The notes below the pieces were generated by a model. It was not told where the DNA came from and did no database searches. It saw nothing but the letters and a program-made list of their open reading frames with translations. 64,000 bases of DNA from an uncultured Nitrosopumilales archaeon (GTDB lineage: Archaea > Thermoproteota > Nitrososphaeria > Nitrososphaerales > UBA213): contig CAYJSN010000008.1 in assembly GCA_964373125.1 (NCBI GenBank), positions 4,244 to 68,243 of the forward strand. The letters are read 5' to 3'. Positions 2,713-43,803 of the stretch are shown piece by piece. How positions within the stretch are numbered: position 1 is the stretch's first letter; each line of letters opens with the position of its first letter. Made by a program: the position numbers and the translations under genes.

Positions 2713-3558
2713 TCATCCTCTGAGCACGGCCTCGGCCATCCTCACTGCCTGGATTGTGGCTGCAACGTTGTGGGTTCGTATCAGATGCGCGCCGTTGAGC
2801 ACGCAGATGGCCTCTGCCGCGATCGAGCCGAGGAGTCGCTCCTCCGGCTCTTCGATCCCGAGTACCCTGCCGATGAATGATTTCCTTGATACGGATACGC
2901 AGACCGGCTTCCGCAGGGCGTGCAGCCTCGAAAGGTTCCTCAGCAATAGAAGGTCCCTCTCCAGCCAGGTCGTGCTCTTCATCCTAGTGAAGAAGGGATG
3001 GTTGCCCTTACTCCTGAAGAAGCCTATCGCCGGATCCACCGCTATGCTGTCTGATCTTATCCCTGCCTCTCTGGCCAGCCTGATGCTTGCCTTCAGCGAG
3101 TTTATCGTCGTCCTGACGGGGTCGCCAGATACCGTGCGCTTCTCATACGCAGATACGATGAGGGAGGCACCGTGATCCGCAACGACCCTTCCCATATCCG
3201 GGTCGTACTTCAGGCCGGTCACGTCGTTCACAACCTCGGCCCCGAGGTTCAGTGCCGCGTCCGCAACCCTCGCCCTCGGCGTATCTACCGAGACCGGCAG
3301 GCCGCAGGCATCCCTCACAGCCTTGATTGCATGTCTCAGCCTGGCCGCCTCCTCCTCCGGCGGGATCACGGTCTTCAGGTAGGGCGCGGTTGACATCGCG
3401 CCGATATCTAACAGATCGGCGCCCTGCTCCGCCATCTCTCTTGCGGTTCTGGCTATCTCCCTCGCCGAGGTCTTTATCGATTGTTTGTAGAAGGACTCGG
3501 GGCTGACGTTGATCACGCCCATTACCCTGATCCTGCCCAACGAGCCGCTTATACGCAT
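2713..3558 (-). CDS. folP: Dihydropteroate synthase
   Basis: 281 aa. Pterin-binding domain strings VMGVINVSPESFY, DLLDIGAMSTAP, VNDVTG. Confidence 0.85.
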   Translation of the reverse strand: MRISGSLGRIRVMGVINVSPESFYKQSIKTSAREIARTAREMAEQGADLLDIGAMSTAPYLKTVIPPEEEAARLRHAIKAVRDACGLPVSVDTPRARVADAALNLGAEVVNDVTGLKYDPDMGRVVADHGASLIVSAYEKRTVSGDPVRTTINSLKASIRLAREAGIRSDSIAVDPAIGFFRSKGNHPFFTRMKSTTWLERDLLLLRNLSRLHALRKPVCVSVSRKSFIGRVLGIEEPEERLLGSIAAEAICVLNGAHLIRTHNVAATIQAVRMAEAVLRG

Positions 3559-3652
3559 ATGCTATAATTTCCTTCCCCATGGACATATTACTCCACCGAT
3601 CGGCGGATCAAATTGTTGATATGTGCGTCCGCCCATCCGGTGATCGAACAGT

Positions 3653-4405
3653 ATGAACTTGGAGGAGTGGCTGAAGCGCTACGACGGCATAAGGACGAAG
3701 TTCGGCTACAGCATAGTGGAGGACCAGAACGCTGCGATATTTCTGGGCGAGCTGCTGGAGGGCAGGGCGCTGGAGCCCAAGGTTCTGGCCGACATCATAT
3801 CTGACCGGGATGTTGTTGTGGTGGGGGCTGGCCCGTCGCTGGAGGACGCGCTTCAGAAATTGTCAGAGATCGGAGGTTTCAGGATGATAGCGGCCGATGG
3901 CGCAACACAGGCGCTCCTTGAGAACGGGATCAGGCCCGATGTCGTGGTAACCGATCTCGACGGAAGTCACGAACATCTGCTGCAGGCCGACAGGAAGAAC
4001 TCGGTAATGGTCGTGCACGCTCATGGTGACAATGTCAACCTGATGCGCAACCTCGTGCCGAAGATGCATAACTGTATAGGAAGCACGCAGGTCAAGCCGA
4101 TCAGGAACGTCTACAACTTTGGGGGCTTCACCGACGGAGATCGGGCCGTCTTCCTCGCGAGCGAGTTCAGGGCAAGGACGATCGTGCTGGCGGGCATGGA
4201 CTTTGGGGAAAAGATCGGCAGGTACTCCAAGACCGGGGTAAAAAATGAAAAGCTCAAGGTCGAGAAGATGGCCGTGGGCAAGGAATTATTGGAACGGCTC
4301 TCCACCTTCTCGGGCTCGGAGCTTTACAATACCTCGCCAAGCGTGATAAGAGGTTTCAGGAACATCTCCCTAGAGGAAGTTCGCTCGCTGATCCGCCGAG
4401 CATGA
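3653..4405 (+). CDS. mptE: MptE-like 6-hydroxymethyl-dihydropterin pyrophosphokinase (DUF115 family)
   Basis: 250 aa. VVVVGAGPSLED, IAADGATQALLENGIRPDVVVTDLDG, VVHAHGDN. Transcribed divergently from folP. Confidence 0.7.
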   Translation: MNLEEWLKRYDGIRTKFGYSIVEDQNAAIFLGELLEGRALEPKVLADIISDRDVVVVGAGPSLEDALQKLSEIGGFRMIAADGATQALLENGIRPDVVVTDLDGSHEHLLQADRKNSVMVVHAHGDNVNLMRNLVPKMHNCIGSTQVKPIRNVYNFGGFTDGDRAVFLASEFRARTIVLAGMDFGEKIGRYSKTGVKNEKLKVEKMAVGKELLERLSTFSGSELYNTSPSVIRGFRNISLEEVRSLIRRA

Positions 4406-4477
4406 ATCCTGCGGAAATAATAGTATGATCTTCAAAACACGAAAAGATTTTATGCTCCATGACCTGCGGTTGGAGCC

Positions 4478-4570
4478 ATGCCCAACGTCGGCACGCTTGT
4501 AATGGCCCTGGCACTGGCTATCGCATTTATCCTTATTGCGATTAGCGTATGGCGCGGCAACAGGGACTGA
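4478..4570 (+). CDS. Possible 30-aa hydrophobic micro-protein
   Basis: ATG-to-TGA reads MPNVGTLVMALALAIAFILIAISVWRGNRD (one TM helix plus a basic tail). Below the ORF-track cutoff. A/T-rich stretch about 50 nt upstream. Confidence 0.3.
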   Translation: MPNVGTLVMALALAIAFILIAISVWRGNRD

Positions 4571-4600
4571 TGCCCGGAACCAGCCAACTGTGGCGCCGAT

Positions 4601-4613
4601 TAAATTTATTATA
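4601..4613 (+). promoter_or_regulatory. TATA-like box for the 4637 gene
   Basis: taaatttattata centred about 30 nt upstream of the ATG at 4637, consistent with a leaderless or short-leader archaeal mRNA. Confidence 0.4.
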
Positions 4614-4636
4614 CCAGTGAACATTATCATCCTTAG

Positions 4637-5182
4637 ATGAGTTATTCTGAAGACGAAGTAAAACGGGTCGCGGAACTCAGGGAGTGGTTTGTCAAGCAGC
4701 TGAACGAGAAGGAGGACGAAGTGGCAAGGCTCAAGGCAGCACTAACCCTGATAGACGGAATGCTGAAGCAGGTCAGCTTCAGGCCCGCAGTAACATTAAG
4801 CCAGACGGCTGGCAAGGAGGTCACCGAGCACGGCGAGGCCAGGCCGCTGAAGACAAAGGACAACGTTGTACTTGCAAATGCATATACGTCACCGACCTCG
4901 GTCACGATCGTACCAGCAAGCCAGTTCAAACTTAGCACGAGCACGCCGCCCTTCCAGTCGTTCTTCCTCAGCAGGATACTGGAGGGTATGAAGGGCAAGG
5001 ATACCGAGCGTGTTGAGCTCGGCCAGCTGCGCAGCGATGAGATGATCAGCTACTCGATCGAGGAGGAGGACGGCGTCATCAAGAAGATCGTCGTCAACAA
5101 CTACAGGGAGAGGGAGCGGCTCAACGAGATACTCAACACCGCAACGTGGGTATTCGCCAGGATGCTGGAAAAAACAAGGTAG
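4637..5182 (+). CDS. Hypothetical protein with N-terminal coiled coil
   Basis: 181-aa ORF. TATA-like box 4601-4613 about 30 nt upstream of the ATG. Stop is 6 nt before guaA. No recognisable domain. Confidence 0.6.
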   Translation: MSYSEDEVKRVAELREWFVKQLNEKEDEVARLKAALTLIDGMLKQVSFRPAVTLSQTAGKEVTEHGEARPLKTKDNVVLANAYTSPTSVTIVPASQFKLSTSTPPFQSFFLSRILEGMKGKDTERVELGQLRSDEMISYSIEEEDGVIKKIVVNNYRERERLNEILNTATWVFARMLEKTR

Positions 5183-35826: not shown

Positions 35827-36993
35827 TCAGAGGTAGGATCGTACCTTCTGGATCAGGTTCTCGGTCCCATCCATCTTTTCTGTCATCTCCATCAGCATCC
35901 GTGCCTTACTAGCATACCGCGAGTCATTGAGCACCTGCTGCACCGAGCTGGCGATATCCTGCGGTGTTAGATCCTTCTGGTTCAGCATCAGGCCGAGGCC
36001 CATCTTCTCGGCTTTCCTGGCATTGCCCAGCTGCTCGCCGTGGTTCTCGATCGGGATGCTCACCACCGGCTTGCCGAACTGCATCGCCTGCGCGAGAACG
36101 GAGTGGCCGCCCCTCATTATCAGCAGGTCGCTCATAGCGAACACCTCGTCCTTCACCGGGCACCACTCGAAGTACCAGCTGTTCCTTATCCTTCTCGGCA
36201 CGGTGTCTCCCTTCGGCCTTCCCTCGGAGACAACGAACTGGACGTCTTCCATGCCCTGCAGCGCCTCCACCACCTTCTTCAGTGCCACGATCTTTGTGGC
36301 CGCGGGGCCGCTTATGTGCCCGAAGACTATCGGCTTGCTGCGATCGAAGCCCAGCAGCTTTGCAACCTTGTCGACGTACTCCTCCTGAATTGTAGGCTTC
36401 GGCGCCATGAACCCGATGTATTCTAGCTTGTTGGAAACGCTTTTGATCCCCCAGATGTTCTGCTCAGAGAGTGTATAGGGCGGAGGAAGGTCGGGTATCA
36501 ATAGCGAATCGCTCCTAGCCCATCTCTTACCTAATGATTCGGCCAGATGATGTTCGAAGCTGCGTGCGATACTTAGCTCCCGGATTCCCGTAGAGAGTAG
36601 CAGTTTTATCTGATTGATGATTGTAATGACAGGAAGCTTCAACTGTTTCGCAGCAACAAGCGATGATAGCCTCGTATCAGACACGACCACATCAGGATTG
36701 AATCCTGATATGTTCCTACGCTCCTTCCGCCGCTGGGACATGTAATTTATGAAATTTTTCGGAAGCTTCTTTATACTCGTCGTTAACGTGAATCCCCGAT
36801 CCGGGCTCCAGCCGAACTCGACGGGCGGCACATCGAAGCACCGGTAGCCGTGCATCTCCACATACTTCACGGCATCGCCGAATGTTGAGAACCTGACCTC
36901 GGTGCCTTGCTTTGCGAGGCCGTTCGCAACTGGAAGCATCCTGCTAGCGTGGCCTAGTCCAACGCCGTAGAGGGAGATGTAGACCCTGCTCAT
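35827..36993 (-). CDS. GT-B glycosyltransferase (MurG/GT28-GT1-like)
   Basis: 388 aa. N-terminal YGVGLGHASRMLPVANGL. C-terminal donor-binding block MRGGHSVLAQAMQFGKPVVSIP...EQ. Confidence 0.75.
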   Translation of the reverse strand: MSRVYISLYGVGLGHASRMLPVANGLAKQGTEVRFSTFGDAVKYVEMHGYRCFDVPPVEFGWSPDRGFTLTTSIKKLPKNFINYMSQRRKERRNISGFNPDVVVSDTRLSSLVAAKQLKLPVITIINQIKLLLSTGIRELSIARSFEHHLAESLGKRWARSDSLLIPDLPPPYTLSEQNIWGIKSVSNKLEYIGFMAPKPTIQEEYVDKVAKLLGFDRSKPIVFGHISGPAATKIVALKKVVEALQGMEDVQFVVSEGRPKGDTVPRRIRNSWYFEWCPVKDEVFAMSDLLIMRGGHSVLAQAMQFGKPVVSIPIENHGEQLGNARKAEKMGLGLMLNQKDLTPQDIASSVQQVLNDSRYASKARMLMEMTEKMDGTENLIQKVRSYL

Positions 36994-39864: not shown

Positions 39865-39905
39865 ATCTGCGTTTAAATATAGTGGGAATAATATCTGATG
39901 AAGAT

Positions 39906-40640
39906 ATGACCGGAAAACTTTTCTGCATCGGCTGCGGGCCGGGAGACCCGGAGCTGCTCACGCTCAGGGCGGCCGATATCCTGAGCTCATGCGATGTGAT
40001 CTTCTGCCCGACATCACGCCAAGGAAGAGAGAGCATGGCACTATCCATAGTCAGACCGATCCTGGAGAAGAGGGAGAAGCAGCCCGAGACTGTCGATCTC
40101 ATCTTTCCGATGGTGAAGGACAAGGCAACGCTCAGCGAAACCTGGCACAGGAATGCTGACGAGATCGCAAGGAGGTGCGCCGAGGGCAAGAAAACCGCCT
40201 ACCTGTGCGTGGGGGACCCGGCGCTCTACAGCACCTTCGCCTACATACACAAGGAGCTAAAAAGTCGATACCCCGAGATCGGGGTGGAGATAGTTCCCGG
40301 CGTTGCTTCATTATTCTCGTTTGCGTCGCAGGCCAAGATCAGCCTGGTCGAGGGAGACCAGACACTGGCCATCGTGCCGGCGTGTTACGACCTTGAGCGG
40401 GTAAAATCTGCGGCCAGCTCCTGCGATACCGTGATCTTCCTAAAGGACGGCAGGTACTTCGGCAGCGTGATCGAGATCCTGAAGCAGGCCGGCTTCCCGG
40501 ACGACTCGCTCATCGCGATCGCGCAGGACGTCTCTGCCGAGGGCGAGGTGGTCAGAGTCGCCAAGCTTGGGGAGGTCGGGAGCAGCAACCCGGCGGAGAA
40601 GTACTTCTCGATAATGGTGGTAAAGCGTGGGCGCGGCTAA
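39906..40640 (+). CDS. cbiL: Cobalt-precorrin-2 C20-methyltransferase
   Basis: 244 aa from MTGKLFCIGCGPGDPELLTLRAADIL. Tetrapyrrole methylase fold (CVGDPALYSTF). Confidence 0.8.
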   Translation: MTGKLFCIGCGPGDPELLTLRAADILSSCDVIFCPTSRQGRESMALSIVRPILEKREKQPETVDLIFPMVKDKATLSETWHRNADEIARRCAEGKKTAYLCVGDPALYSTFAYIHKELKSRYPEIGVEIVPGVASLFSFASQAKISLVEGDQTLAIVPACYDLERVKSAASSCDTVIFLKDGRYFGSVIEILKQAGFPDDSLIAIAQDVSAEGEVVRVAKLGEVGSSNPAEKYFSIMVVKRGRG

Positions 40641-41406
40641 GCCAAAGGTATGCTTCGTGGGCGCAGGGCCGGGCGATCCGGAGCTGATCACCCTGAAGGC
40701 GAAGAAGCTGATCGGAGCAGCAGATACGATCGTGTACTCCGGCTCGCTACTGCACCCCAAGCTGCTCAAGTACGCAAAGAAAGGCGCTGATCTTTACGAC
40801 GCCGCAGAGCTGGACAGGGAGAAGATATCCGAGATACTCATTGCCGCAGCGAAGAAGGGCAAGTTTGCGATCAGGCTGCACGACGGGGACCCTGCGCTCT
40901 TCAGCGCGATTCGGGAGCAGATCGACAGGCTGGAAAAGCAGGGCATAGAGTGCCAAGTTGTACCCGGCATAAGCGCGCTCTTCGCCGCCGCCGCAAGGCT
41001 GAACCTCGAGCTTACGCTGCCGGGCATAACGCAGAGCGTGATAATAACCAGGGCGGAGCTGAGGACGCCCGTGCCTGACCGGGAGCGGATATCGGAACTA
41101 GCGAGGCACAGGAGCACGATGGCCTTCTACCTGAGCGTGCACCTGACCGACCGCCTTGTCAGGGAGCTGGTCGCCGGGGGATATCCTCCAGAGACGCCCG
41201 CTGCTGTTGTATACAGGGCAACCTGGGAGGATGAAATTGTACTAACAGGCACGCTGGCGGACATCGCATCGAAGGTAAAGGCAGCGAGGATAACCAAGAC
41301 TGCCGTCGTGATAGTCGGGGATGTGCTCAGGCCGAAAAGCTACGAATTCTCCAAGGTCTACGACCCGGCGTTTACGCACACGTACAGGAAAGCAAGAAAA
41401 AGCTAG
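40627..41406 (+). CDS. cbiF: Cobalt-precorrin-4 C11-methyltransferase
   Basis: 259 aa, GTG start. VCFVGAGPGDPELITLKA, IVYSGSLL, LHDGDPALFSAIREQ. Confidence 0.85.
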   Translation: MGAAKPKVCFVGAGPGDPELITLKAKKLIGAADTIVYSGSLLHPKLLKYAKKGADLYDAAELDREKISEILIAAAKKGKFAIRLHDGDPALFSAIREQIDRLEKQGIECQVVPGISALFAAAARLNLELTLPGITQSVIITRAELRTPVPDRERISELARHRSTMAFYLSVHLTDRLVRELVAGGYPPETPAAVVYRATWEDEIVLTGTLADIASKVKAARITKTAVVIVGDVLRPKSYEFSKVYDPAFTHTYRKARKS

Positions 41407-41525: not shown

Positions 41526-42158
41526 CTAGGTGAATCTTGGCAGCTCTTCTGCGGCTGGTACTGAGGGGAGCCTGCTATCCACGTTCTTCTCTGCCACTGC
41601 GGAGGCTTCTGCCAGTATCTTCTCTACCTCCTCGTTGGAGGCGTCGCTCACGAAGCTGAAGCTTCCTCCGGAGAGCGTGTCAACCATCAGGTTGCCTAGC
41701 GTGCTCGTCATCTCTCCTATCTCGTTCTCCGCCTCGGGCATGAACTTCACCAACCCAGCCTTCACGCTCTTCATTGCGCCCACCGCAGGCATCAGTGCCA
41801 CCACAGCATCGCCCACATCGTGGACTGTGCTGAGTCTGAGATTCACCTGCTCGAGAGCCAACCTCGCGTGGCTGAGAGTCTTGGTTACCTTCCGCACCTC
41901 GGCCAGCTCGTTTGAGAGAACTCTTCCCGCATCCGCGTCGTGTTTCTGCATCGCGTCTACGATCCTCTTGAAGAGTGCCGAGTCCTTCTCGCGCATCTTC
42001 GCAAGCATCGTGTCCATCCTCTGTATCTGTGCTTGCAGTCTGTTCATTGCTCCGTCAATCCTCGGCCTCAGGGGTCCCTGTGGCTTGACGGTGTCCCTCA
42101 CCTTCTCTGCTACTCCTCTGTTGTCCGGTCTAGTCCAGTTCTTACCGAAGTTACTCAT
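41526..42158 (-). CDS. cdvB: ESCRT-III/Snf7-family protein (CdvB-like)
   Basis: 210 aa. Basic N-terminal helical hairpin, acidic C-terminus. Snf7-like heptad pattern (RLQAQIQRMDTMLAKMREKD...). Confidence 0.7.
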   Translation of the reverse strand: MSNFGKNWTRPDNRGVAEKVRDTVKPQGPLRPRIDGAMNRLQAQIQRMDTMLAKMREKDSALFKRIVDAMQKHDADAGRVLSNELAEVRKVTKTLSHARLALEQVNLRLSTVHDVGDAVVALMPAVGAMKSVKAGLVKFMPEAENEIGEMTSTLGNLMVDTLSGGSFSFVSDASNEEVEKILAEASAVAEKNVDSRLPSVPAAEELPRFT

Positions 42159-42324
42159 GGGCGATCCTCCTACGTTTTGTTATTAATTCTAGGTGTGTAT
42201 TATTATTGATAACAAAGACAAACGCCAAGTTTACACTCTTCCTCATGCACAGAGATATCTCACTGCGGCTCCTGCTTCTCACTCCTGCACAAAGCAATTA
42301 TTACAAGTCCGCGTTTACCAGTGC

Positions 42325-43137
42325 ATGGCAGACGACCGACCGATAGCTGTTTTTGACTCTGGAATGGGCTCGCTCTCCGTGGTCAGCGCCCTTAGGGAGG
42401 AGCTGCCGGGCGAATCGATCATCTATCTTGCAGACAGGGCCCACTATCCCTACGGAAACAAGAGCAAGGAGCAGCTCCGGTCGATAATCGTGCAGACGAT
42501 CAAGTTCCTGGAAAAATACGACACGAAGTCCATCATCGTTGCGTCGATCACGCCGTCTATGCTAGTGCTGAAGGAAGCCAGGCTTTACACCAACGTGCCG
42601 GTCTTCGGTGTCTATCCGGCAATGGCCGGTGCGCTGGCAGTGTCAAAGACAAAGCACATAGCATTCTTGGCAACGCAGGCAACCATCGAAAGCGTTGAGC
42701 TGGACGAATACACAAAACCGTACATATCCACCGCAAGGATAGTCAGGATAAATGCGTCGCCGATCATCGACATAGTTGAATCGGGGCAGTTTCTGGAAGA
42801 CGGCAACGTCGCAGAAACGCTGGCCAGGGTAACGCGTGGGATCAAGTCGGACCCAAAGATCGATGTCATAATGCTGGGCAGCACGCACCTGACGCTGGTG
42901 AAGGATCGTCTGGCGGAGCTCTTCCCGAAGATGCAGTTCGTGAATCCCGCGCTCGACACCGTGAAGCAGGTGAAGAACTACCTGCAGCGGCAGGACATGG
43001 CTGCCAAAGGCAAGGGCGGCCTGAAGATCCTTGTGTCAAAGAAGAAAGAACAGTTCGAAAAGATCATAAGAAAACTGAGGATGAAGGAGAGCGTGGAGGA
43101 GGTCGCGCTCGACTTTAGGCTCGACCTCTTCACCTAG
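42325..43137 (+). CDS. Glutamate-racemase-family protein with non-canonical (Ser/Ser) catalytic positions
   Basis: 270 aa from MADDRPIAVFDSGMGSLSV. YPYGNKS. Collinear with MurI, but ACNTAS reads ASITPS and LGCTH reads LGSTH. Confidence 0.8.
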   Translation: MADDRPIAVFDSGMGSLSVVSALREELPGESIIYLADRAHYPYGNKSKEQLRSIIVQTIKFLEKYDTKSIIVASITPSMLVLKEARLYTNVPVFGVYPAMAGALAVSKTKHIAFLATQATIESVELDEYTKPYISTARIVRINASPIIDIVESGQFLEDGNVAETLARVTRGIKSDPKIDVIMLGSTHLTLVKDRLAELFPKMQFVNPALDTVKQVKNYLQRQDMAAKGKGGLKILVSKKKEQFEKIIRKLRMKESVEEVALDFRLDLFT

Positions 43138-43803
43138 CTATTGATCACTGCTGATCAGCTTCCTGATCCTCCTGAAGACGCCTATCCACTGCCGCCAAGT
43201 CAGCCTCCCGGTCTGGGTATTCTGCCTGCTGGGGTGGTATGAGGCGATGAGAACCTTCCCATCCACATCGTATGAGAGGTTGTGCCCGAACCTGAGGCCT
43301 CTCACGCCATGCAGGGACGTGTAGGCCCTGAAGGCTATCGAGCCGAGGGCCAGCACAACCTTCACGTCTTTCAGTAACCCCACCTCCTCGGCCAGGTAGC
43401 AGGAACAGTTCCCGATCTCCTTCCCGGTGGGCTTGTTCCCGGGCGGGGCGCACCTGACCACCGCGGTGATGTAGGTTGATTTGAGCTTTAATCCATCGTC
43501 CTTCCTCTGGCTGGTCGGCTGGTTGGCGAAGCCGGTCTCGTGGAGCGCCCTTACGAGCCAGTCGCCCGACATGTCGCCCGTGAACATCCTCCCGGTTCTG
43601 TTGCCGCCGTGGGCTGCAGGAGCCAGGCCTATTATCAGCAGCTTGGCATCGGGATCGCCGAACCCGGGCAGGGGCCTGCCCCAGTACTCCCAGCCGCCGT
43701 AACGTCTTACCTTCGTCCTTGCGACTGCCGCTATATACTTCGCAAGCCTCGGGCACTTGCTGCATCTTATTATCCGGTCATTTAGAAAGTCGAGCTCGCG
43801 CAT
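43138..43803 (-). CDS. Uracil-DNA glycosylase, family 5 (UDGb-like), FeS
   Basis: 221 aa. CSKCPRL, GLAPAAHGGNRTGRMFTGD (family-5 type motif A), SYHPSRQN motif B. Confidence 0.85.
   Translation of the reverse strand: MRELDFLNDRIIRCSKCPRLAKYIAAVARTKVRRYGGWEYWGRPLPGFGDPDAKLLIIGLAPAAHGGNRTGRMFTGDMSGDWLVRALHETGFANQPTSQRKDDGLKLKSTYITAVVRCAPPGNKPTGKEIGNCSCYLAEEVGLLKDVKVVLALGSIAFRAYTSLHGVRGLRFGHNLSYDVDGKVLIASYHPSRQNTQTGRLTWRQWIGVFRRIRKLISSDQ

Follow-up and report, generated by a model that had tools for sequence, protein, structure and literature searches.

A gene at positions 42325..43137 (+ strand) of a 64,000-nucleotide stretch of contig CAYJSN010000008.1, from an uncultured Nitrosopumilales archaeon, encodes a homolog of glutamate racemase MurI with serine at both positions where the catalytic cysteines are expected. 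The whole stretch is referred to here as the window, and the product of this gene as the window protein. The translation runs to 270 amino acids plus a stop codon, without internal stops, and contains all the motifs listed for it in a first-pass annotation of the window: IAVFDSGMGSLSV, YPYGNKS, IIVASITPS, PVFGVYPA, and IMLGSTHLT. The Ser/Ser state is a family-wide, previously overlooked variant, and its recognition corrects a published functional inference for ammonia-oxidizing archaea (AOA). The start of the gene is placed at ATG 42325 because the N-termini of orthologs, which begin M-[AP]-D-D-R-P, match there. A longer open reading frame starting at GTG 42193 was considered as the gene start and is not supported by these orthologs.

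The first catalytic position, Cys74 in B. subtilis numbering, is occupied by Ser74 (codon TCG, 42544..42546), and the second, Cys185 in B. subtilis numbering, by Ser186 (codon AGC, 42880..42882). Both serines are invariant in the branch of the family described below. Alignment and codon read-out agree that position 75 is Ile (codon ATC, 42547..42549), where the C-N-T motif has Asn. The first-pass annotation had described the loss of both catalytic cysteines through two independent codon changes, together with the loss of this Asn, and it was correct in each particular. Other elements of the active site, all on the + strand, can be recognized readily. Asp11-Ser12 of the DSG motif lies at 42355..42360. 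The Pro42-Tyr43-Gly44 loop, the PYG substrate-binding motif of MurI, lies at 42448..42456; in the Ser/Ser branch Pro42 and Tyr43 never vary and Gly44 hardly does, and canonical MurI conserves the whole loop. Glu152, the partner of His188, is encoded at 42778..42780, and Thr187-His188 of the S-T-H motif, in which His188 partners residue 186, at 42883..42888.

Several lines of evidence assign the protein to the MurI fold. Model PF01177 (Asp/Glu/hydantoin racemase) matches residues 19-210 with 51.7 bits against a gathering cutoff of 31. TIGR00067, the NCBIfam equivalog model for glutamate racemase, gives 148.5 bits, barely over its cutoff of 146.65. The score to TIGR00035 (asp_race) is 22.9 bits against a cutoff of 93.1, which leaves the protein outside the Asp-racemase subfamily. 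Twenty-three distinct sequences from PDB match the window protein, all of them named glutamate racemase, the best being 2GZM with an E-value of 8e-29. HMMER alignments to 2GZM, 3OUT, and 2JFU place S74-I75-T76 opposite C-N-T and S186-T187-H188 opposite C-T-H, and no alternative alignment shifts the catalytic positions. An AlphaFold2 model, built from a 23-sequence alignment, has a mean predicted local distance difference test (pLDDT) value of 92.3 and a predicted template-modeling (TM) score of 0.90. Foldseek aligns this model to MurI crystal structures with TM scores of 0.85-0.89. The claim that the protein is collinear with MurI is upheld by all of these comparisons, and the prediction of a MurI-fold product is a confident one. 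In the model each serine comes after a beta-strand and right before the N-terminal end of a helix (Ser74 between strand 69-72 and helix 75-80, Ser186 between strand 181-184 and helix 187-199), which, as modeled, is the catalytic-thiol position of this enzyme class. The PDB matches, at about 30% identity or less, include no solved structure of a Ser/Ser member; the catalytic residues were inspected in four alignments. A search for domain fusions that might hint at the function of Ser/Ser proteins found none.

MurI (EC 5.1.1.3) is defined by two catalytic cysteines, which make up its thiolate/thiol pair (PMC8142540), and the window protein has Ser74 and Ser186 instead. The auxiliary catalytic residues of MurI, Asp10, Glu153, and His187 in B. 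subtilis numbering, have their counterparts in Asp11, Glu152, and His188. The residues that contact glutamate in MurI we take to be Ser11, PYG, Asn75, Thr76, Thr118, Thr121, and Thr186, after the papers on 1ZUW and 2GZM. The predicted equivalents Ser12, PYG, Thr76, Thr117, Thr120, and Thr187 are present in the window protein, while Asn75 has become Ile. By mutagenesis of MurI, the general-base partner of position 74 is Asp11, and that of position 186 is His188 together with Glu152. With no Cys at either site, the window protein cannot use a two-base Cys/Cys mechanism, as the first-pass annotation had stated. By the aligned motifs, the textbook thiolate/thiol mechanism is impossible for the entire Ser/Ser branch.

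The distribution of the two states among homologs was surveyed in four ways. A search of 5.8 billion proteins with the window protein listed 120 matches. The closest 94, from 100% down to about 36% identity, have Ser wherever the sites are covered, three truncated sequences among them showing the first site only; the named ones belong to Nitrososphaerales, Nitrosomirales, or Nitrosocosmicus. From the 95th listed match onward, all are Cys/Cys. A scan of genome contigs with the single protein found no relative, and an alignment-based scan was needed. Applied to one genome per GTDB species, the latter found at least 580 relatives, and the best 80 loci were read at the catalytic sites. Ser occurs at every readable site in these 80; in locus L061 the second motif is broken, and L062 is cut short at the 5' end. 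A profile search of 1.84 billion 50%-identity representatives contributed its top 150 sequences to an alignment of 151 that includes the window protein, comprising 51 Ser/Ser, 86 Cys/Cys, and 4 Cys/Ser sequences, with the other 10 truncated or misaligned at one column. Finally, a search with a Nitrosopumilus-type query returned homologs that are Ser/Ser in 121 of 121 cases, several of them on contigs of genome size. Altogether, well over 300 homologs of the Ser/Ser branch were examined. Ser is found at both sites in 100% of the branch, Cys at either site in none of its more than 300 orthologs, and Cys at both columns in 86/86 canonical homologs, a split far beyond chance. The Ser/Ser pair is fixed in the orthologs from related archaea.

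Codon usage at the two sites agrees with long-standing selection. The Ser74 codon is always TCN, with all four synonymous codons in use. Ser186 is encoded by AGY in 75 loci and by TCN in 3 bacterial loci, which represent three switches. Since TCN and AGY are each one nucleotide from the Cys codon TGY, the pattern fits a single ancient change at each site and purifying selection from then on. It also fits a selection strong enough to have carried Ser186 across two disjoint sets of Ser codons.

In a neighbor-joining tree, made after masking of the two catalytic columns, the 47 full-length Ser/Ser tips form one clade, with no Cys-bearing tip inside it, and the window protein, which reads GSLS, SITPS, and STHL at the diagnostic motifs, falls within this clade. 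Internal branches of the tree are short and do not show which way the gene passed between archaea and bacteria. The signature of the branch is D-[SA]-G-x-G-S-[LYF]-[SA], A-S-x-[TA]-P-[ST], and [SG]-S-T-H-L. We are highly confident, on this evidence, that 42325-43137 is an intact member of a monophyletic Ser/Ser branch of the MurI family. No curated model or paper that sets this branch apart was found. Apart from the unusual residues themselves, nothing speaks for an artefact or for decay, and such an origin (sequencing error, strain-specific lesion, or pseudogene) is hardly credible, being ruled out by the ortholog and codon evidence. The identical protein occurs in independent assemblies, the reading frame is intact with two separate codons changed, and hundreds of orthologs carry Ser/Ser under purifying selection. 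The argument already made from the two codons, that a single sequencing error could not explain the change, is strengthened by these hundreds of like orthologs.

Four sequences in the 151-member alignment (P0221, P0237, P0275, and P0276) represent otherwise canonical, GGL-type MurI clusters but have Cys at the first site and Ser at the second, as in ACNTA ... LGSTHYP. Because they lie outside the Ser/Ser clade, they are independent, natural, half-substituted variants.

Conservation was compared between 51 Ser/Ser and 86 Cys/Cys representatives. Positions D11, G13, G15, D37, P42, Y43, G44, E152, T187, and H188 are kept at 96-100% in both groups. Within this set D11, P42, Y43, and H188 stand at 100% and T187 at 98% in both, with E152 at 100% in Ser/Ser and 99-100% in Cys/Cys sequences. 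Kept at lower levels are K46 (94% in Ser/Ser vs 80% in Cys/Cys), D180 (92% vs 95%), and N75 (88% in both). In the archaeal part of the branch position 75 varies among N, I, T, S, M, and V, the window protein having Ile. Fixed differences, from Cys/Cys to Ser/Ser, are G16S (98% Ser vs 100% Gly), C74S, A77P, G185S (90%), C186S, and Y189L; the window protein keeps Gly at 185, where 90% of the branch has Ser. The Ser/Ser group gained conservation at A36, P99, F156, and P208. It lost conservation at E30 (99% to 33%), K68 (99% to 31%), P92 (90% to 35%), T117 (95% to 59%), T120 (90% to 24%), S12 (100% to 74%), and T76 (94% to 65%). Archaeal and bacterial members share about 33% overall identity, yet Ser74, Ser186, Asp11, Glu152, and His188 are 100% invariant among them, and by this measure strict purifying selection acts on the serines and on the auxiliary catalytic residues. 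Because the general-base partners are as invariant as the serines while the contact shell is partly relaxed, the site appears to have been kept for chemistry on a glutamate-related ligand. That ligand is probably related to, but not identical with, free glutamate.

The first-pass annotation had offered three alternatives for the protein, namely different chemistry, another substrate, or a non-catalytic binding role, and these are still the live options. The last would make the branch a pseudoenzyme, a MurI scaffold serving as a binder or sensor of glutamate or another small molecule, or as a protein-protein regulator, with the serines doing nothing beyond hydrogen-bonding the ligand. Loss of both thiols kills this enzyme class, and several positions invariant in MurI are relaxed in the branch, as such a role would allow. 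Some MurI proteins moonlight as DNA gyrase inhibitors with no need of catalysis. A regulatory role would also suit the gene's position directly after a regulatory chvI-chvG-hprK-EIIA-HPr cluster on one Rhizobiales-type contig, and its divergent pairing with a cdvB-like gene in AOA. Pseudoenzymes, however, usually let catalytic and auxiliary residues drift, and here these are 100% invariant; Ser186 was kept through switches of codon class, and no Thr, Ala, Gly, or Cys is seen at either site. We consider a non-catalytic role possible but lean against it.

Archaeal members of the branch come from Nitrososphaeraceae, Nitrosocosmicus, Nitrosocaldus, Nitrosopumilus-type AOA, and the window's own clade. 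The closest named relatives of the window protein, at 66-69% identity, are from metagenome-assembled genomes (MAGs) of Nitrososphaerales and "Ca. Nitrosomirales". The bacterial Ser/Ser group shows the motifs VFDAGIGSYA / ASNAPS / LSSTHLPW and includes members from Phyllobacterium, Brucella, Ochrobactrum, Bartonella, Bradyrhizobium, Bosea, Cupriavidus, Taylorella, Salinicola, Vreelandella, Celeribacter, Nocardia, Mammaliicoccus sciuri, and Fusobacterium vincentii. On a single replicon of F. vincentii SB055, the Ser/Ser gene is found at 733 kb and a normal Cys/Cys MurI (IVACNTAS ... LGCTHYP) at 1,435 kb. Co-residence of a Cys/Cys MurI means that the Ser/Ser protein there is a retained paralog that has a function of its own and does not supply D-Glu for murein. 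The Ser/Ser branch is not decaying, and its function is distinct from that of murein MurI. Avoidance of thiols in aerobic, copper- and NO-rich AOA was considered as a cause of the replacement, and is weakened by the occurrence of the family in the anaerobe F. vincentii and in many heterotrophic bacteria.

Some labels in the survey are doubtful. Locus L064, labeled Bacillus subtilis SK6B4, has the gene order and Ser/Ser type of L067 from Pseudochrobactrum kiredjianiae, a likeness by which its assembly is probably contaminated or mislabeled. L031 is labeled Nitrosopumilus but is Nitrosocosmicus-like, and L053 ("Patescibacteria") and L055 ("bacterium") carry AOA-type genes.

Scores to TIGR00067 explain the present naming of the family. 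AOA Ser/Ser proteins score 148-164 bits, 2-18 bits over the cutoff, and bacterial Ser/Ser proteins score 87-100 bits, 47-60 under it. For this reason AOA members are automatically named "glutamate racemase", and bacterial members are called "aspartate/glutamate racemase family protein" at NCBI. One family thus carries two public names, and many Ser/Ser members fall under the gathering score of PF01177 as well.

A MurI-like gene was called unexpected in an archaeon by the first-pass annotation. Its presence is confirmed, but a MurI homolog in AOA had already been reported in 2025, and the trait is family-wide, bacteria included, not peculiar to this organism. The report, a D-amino-acid study of the Mariana Trench in mSystems (PMC12363236), found K01776 ("GLUR") in 31% of Nitrososphaeria MAGs. 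The gene was prevalent among AOA but almost never present in their non-AOA relatives, and showed bacterial affinity and a structural match to 2GZM. The N. maritimus protein was said to have the necessary catalytic residues, and utilization of D-Glu was inferred (PMC12363236). The AOA GLUR is almost certainly the same orthologous family as the window gene, and the Ser/Ser replacement was not noticed in that study. All AOA sequences examined here, a set that does not include A9A551 (SCM1), have Ser at both sites, and from these sequences the published statement on catalytic residues appears to be an oversight.

These data also bear on whether the protein could be an ordinary glutamate racemase, acting in D-Glu catabolism as annotated and published for AOA, with the Cys-to-Ser changes of little consequence. 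It passes the TIGR00067 cutoff (148.5 vs 146.65), keeps most of the glutamate-contacting residues, and belongs to a family reported from many AOA with a proposal of D-Glu use (PMC12363236). Such a function is nonetheless improbable. The protein lacks the catalytic pair by which the enzyme is defined, a family member loses essentially all activity when both its Cys are changed to Ser, bacterial members score under the TIGR00067 cutoff, and one of them co-exists with a true MurI. Moreover, Asn75 is not conserved, Thr117 and Thr120 are relaxed, and the published statement on the catalytic site conflicts with 121/121 Ser/Ser among Nitrosopumilus-type sequences. The AOA "glutamate racemase" probably has a different job.

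The gene's surroundings in the window are as follows. A divergent neighbor at 41526..42158 (- strand) encodes a Snf7/ESCRT-III (CdvB-like) protein, with a Pfam Snf7 match (E 5e-6) slightly under the gathering score. The two genes are separated by an AT-rich spacer of 166 bp (42159..42324), presumed to hold their promoters. Upstream on the same strand as the MurI-like gene are two overlapping tetrapyrrole (corrin) methylase genes (39882-40640 and 40627-41406, + strand). Downstream, convergent and with no gap, is a family-4-type uracil-DNA glycosylase (UDG) gene at 43138-43803, and beyond it come genes for glycyl-tRNA synthetase, an HMGL-like synthase, and a protein of the AP-endonuclease-2 fold. 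No mur genes were found among the neighbors within about 7 kb of 42325-43137; the scan for Mur ligases did not extend to the rest of the window. The supply of D-Glu for MurD, which links MurI to murein, has no counterpart at the locus, and the host clade is archaeal. A gene at 35827-36993 (- strand) had been described as a MurG-like GT-B transferase. It matches Glyco_trans_1_3 and Glyco_tran_28_C, by which it is classed as a generic GT-B/GT28-type glycosyltransferase, and the proposed resemblance to MurG carries no link to murein or murein-like chemistry. A Glyco_tran_28_C gene is also found about 8 kb from the MurI-like gene in the Nitrosopumilus-type locus L086.

The divergent cdvB-like/MurI-like pair recurs in L001, L002, L037, and L063 (Nitrosocaldus), and in the Nitrosopumilus-type loci L086 and L087, whose cdvB-like neighbors are 56-60% identical. 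The pair is thus shared by Nitrosocaldus, the window's clade, and Nitrosopumilus-type AOA. This could be ancient synteny or shared regulation, and the cdvB-like gene is given here as genomic context rather than as an established partner. Cobalamin methylases occur near all loci with the pair, and a CbiT-like methyltransferase is found further upstream in relatives. Cobalamin genes adjoin the MurI-like gene in several AOA lineages in varied orientation, and in L086-L088 they are convergent with it and overlap it by 12-17 nt. A role in the cobalamin pathway, such as lactone opening, was considered and judged unlikely; the MurI pocket is small, and no cobalamin genes adjoin the bacterial loci examined.

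Elsewhere in AOA the neighbors differ. UppS lies downstream of the Ser/Ser gene in Nitrososphaera. In Nitrosocosmicus and relatives (20 Nitrososphaeraceae loci), DtxR lies upstream, and Hydantoinase_A, PRPP synthase, and RNase Z lie downstream. The Hydantoinase_A/oxoprolinase-family gene encodes 705 amino acids on the same strand (in L041 at 3037-5154, for example), about 100 bp from the Ser/Ser gene in the two loci that were checked; loci with this adjacency include L004, L014, L028, L038-L044, and L056. Another Nitrososphaeraceae group has a PyrK-like gene upstream, a dCMP deaminase gene downstream, and a transglutaminase-like gene. Bacterial neighbors are heterogeneous and include a PTS-Ntr cluster, MerR, YebC, LysE, Maf, a PALP enzyme, and pyr genes. 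On a Rhizobiales-type contig (L081, 4153-8816) the order is chvI-chvG-hprK-EIIA(Man)-HPr, then the Ser/Ser gene, then an S-adenosylhomocysteinase gene. Genes of nucleotide and pyrimidine metabolism near Ser/Ser genes include pyrE-pyrF-pyrD-pyrK in Fusobacterium, PyrK-like and dCMP deaminase genes in one AOA group, PRPP synthase in a second AOA group and in Phyllobacterium, UDG in the window, and Maf in Bartonella. Such genes were noted in L090 (8964-12045), L010, L021, L024, L027, L049-L055, L089 (3982-4956), and L077 (7136-7777). The recurrence of nucleotide/pyrimidine and hydantoinase-family genes may be a weak lead, or a coincidence. Neither the AOA neighborhoods, with at least four lineage-specific arrangements, nor the bacterial ones yielded a consistent functional partner.

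A change in reaction type was also weighed. The Cys-His-Glu set of MurI becomes Ser186-His188-Glu152, all three invariant, which might act as a nucleophilic triad in an amidase, an esterase, or a lactam or ureide hydrolase on a compound derived from Glu or Asp. Alternatively, the site might carry out one-sided protonation of an enolate, as in a decarboxylase or tautomerase of the arylmalonate-decarboxylase type. The superfamily already includes a decarboxylase and an isomerase. The pocket gains hydroxyls in most members (G16S in 98%, G185S in 90%), the hydantoinase-family gene is directly downstream in the 20 Nitrososphaeraceae loci, and pyrimidine/nucleotide genes recur nearby in unrelated lineages. 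But a one-sided or single-nucleophile mechanism leaves the invariance of Ser74 and Asp11 unexplained. The hydantoinase adjacency is limited to one family, no Hydantoinase_A homolog occurs in the 64-kb window, and the neighborhood signals are weak enough to have arisen by chance. A changed reaction of either kind is distinctly doubtful.

The explanation we find best, at a probability of roughly 40%, is that the Ser/Ser branch would be a two-sided, cofactor-independent proton-transfer enzyme, of racemase or epimerase type, acting on a glutamate-like carboxylate. The pocket, and not merely the fold, would have been retained for chemistry. The Ser74 hydroxyl with Asp11, and the Ser186 hydroxyl with His188-Glu152, would serve as acid/base groups or as proton relays in a two-sided 1,1-proton transfer at C-alpha. 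The substrate would be a small glutamate-like carboxylate that probably is not free glutamate, or has a C-alpha proton of greater acidity, or is turned over slowly; the role would be independent of murein. Because both pseudo-symmetric halves, Ser74/Asp11 and Ser186/His188-Glu152, are equally invariant, two-sided proton transfer seems the most economical reading. Full invariance of the catalytic and auxiliary residues across domains is likewise the strongest point that suggests proton transfer over a pseudoenzyme. A more specific form of the proposal, in which the branch is an active racemase or epimerase whose two Ser hydroxyls, activated by Asp11 and His188-Glu152, replace the thiol/thiolate pair, is rather doubtful.

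Several considerations weigh against proton transfer. The strongest is the near-complete loss of activity in Ser/Ser mutants of related enzymes. The superfamily member OpaE retains 4.8% activity as C90S and is almost dead as C199S or C90S/C199S (PMC12661438); Cys-to-Ser substitution is routine for slowing cofactor-independent racemases in crystallography (PMC11602996). Cys/Cys is the rule according to section 7 of a 2021 review, because Cys has a lower pKa and easier desolvation than Ser or Thr (PMC8142540). No Ser/Ser member has a known activity, ligand, or phenotype, and the neighborhoods, differing among lineages, name no pathway. The invariant serines could instead serve hydrogen bonding of a ligand or nucleophilic catalysis.

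The label "glutamate racemase" in AOA, which are among the most abundant microbes of soil and ocean, underlies conclusions about D-glutamate cycling. Because the defining catalytic pair is missing in all AOA examined, those conclusions need experimental backing, and because AOA proteins lie so little over the TIGR00067 cutoff, the misleading name will keep spreading. The branch represents either a new way of performing racemase chemistry or a clean natural case of a racemase scaffold recruited elsewhere. A racemase working with two Ser hydroxyls, if that is what the protein is, would be a catalytic solution not described for amino-acid racemases, and would provide AOA with a way to make or use up a D-amino acid or a related stereocenter without thiols. 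The question is directly testable, since the gene is carried by cultured AOA and by tractable bacteria (Fusobacterium, Mammaliicoccus, Rhizobiales).

Comparison with known systems places the Ser/Ser protein closest to MurI/RacE, as in B. anthracis (2GZM), L. monocytogenes (3ISV), and B. subtilis (1ZUW). It has the same two-domain fold and a similar length, at 22-28% identity, and shares the DSG, PYG, x-T-H, and Glu152 motifs. It differs by the change from Cys/Cys to Ser/Ser, by Gly16Ser, Ala77Pro, Tyr189Leu, and, in the window protein, Asn75Ile, and by a host without murein; Glu30, Lys68, Thr117, and Thr120 are no longer conserved in its branch. Engineered Cys-to-Ser racemases (OpaE C90S/C199S; HisR C67S and C209S) have the same residue pair at the same kind of site, and are crippled or dead. 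Mutants C73S and C184S of MurI were reportedly described by Glavas and Tanner in 1999. The natural branch differs from the engineered enzymes in its second-shell changes (G16S, A77P, G185S, Y189L) and in its purifying selection, which argues that it is not simply a dead mutant. A mechanistic analogy, and nothing closer, is offered by AMACR/MCR, a cofactor-independent two-base racemase that uses Asp and a His/Glu pair on activated C-alpha protons (PMC8142540), groups like the retained Asp11 and His188-Glu152. AMACR/MCR has an unrelated fold and a thioester substrate with an activated C-alpha proton, and there is no evidence for acyl-CoA use by the Ser/Ser protein. The only exceptions to Cys/Cys listed in the 2021 review are Cys/Thr enzymes (EcL-DER and MMP0739) and a Cys-to-Thr dehydratase (PMC8142540). 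These "unbalanced" Asp/Glu racemases, E. coli EcL-DER/YgeA and M. maripaludis MMP0739, are members of the same superfamily in which a Cys has naturally given way to a hydroxyl residue (PMC8142540, PMC12661438). They keep one thiol and are quasi-unidirectional, whereas the Ser/Ser protein has no thiol and belongs to the MurI rather than the Asp-racemase subfamily.

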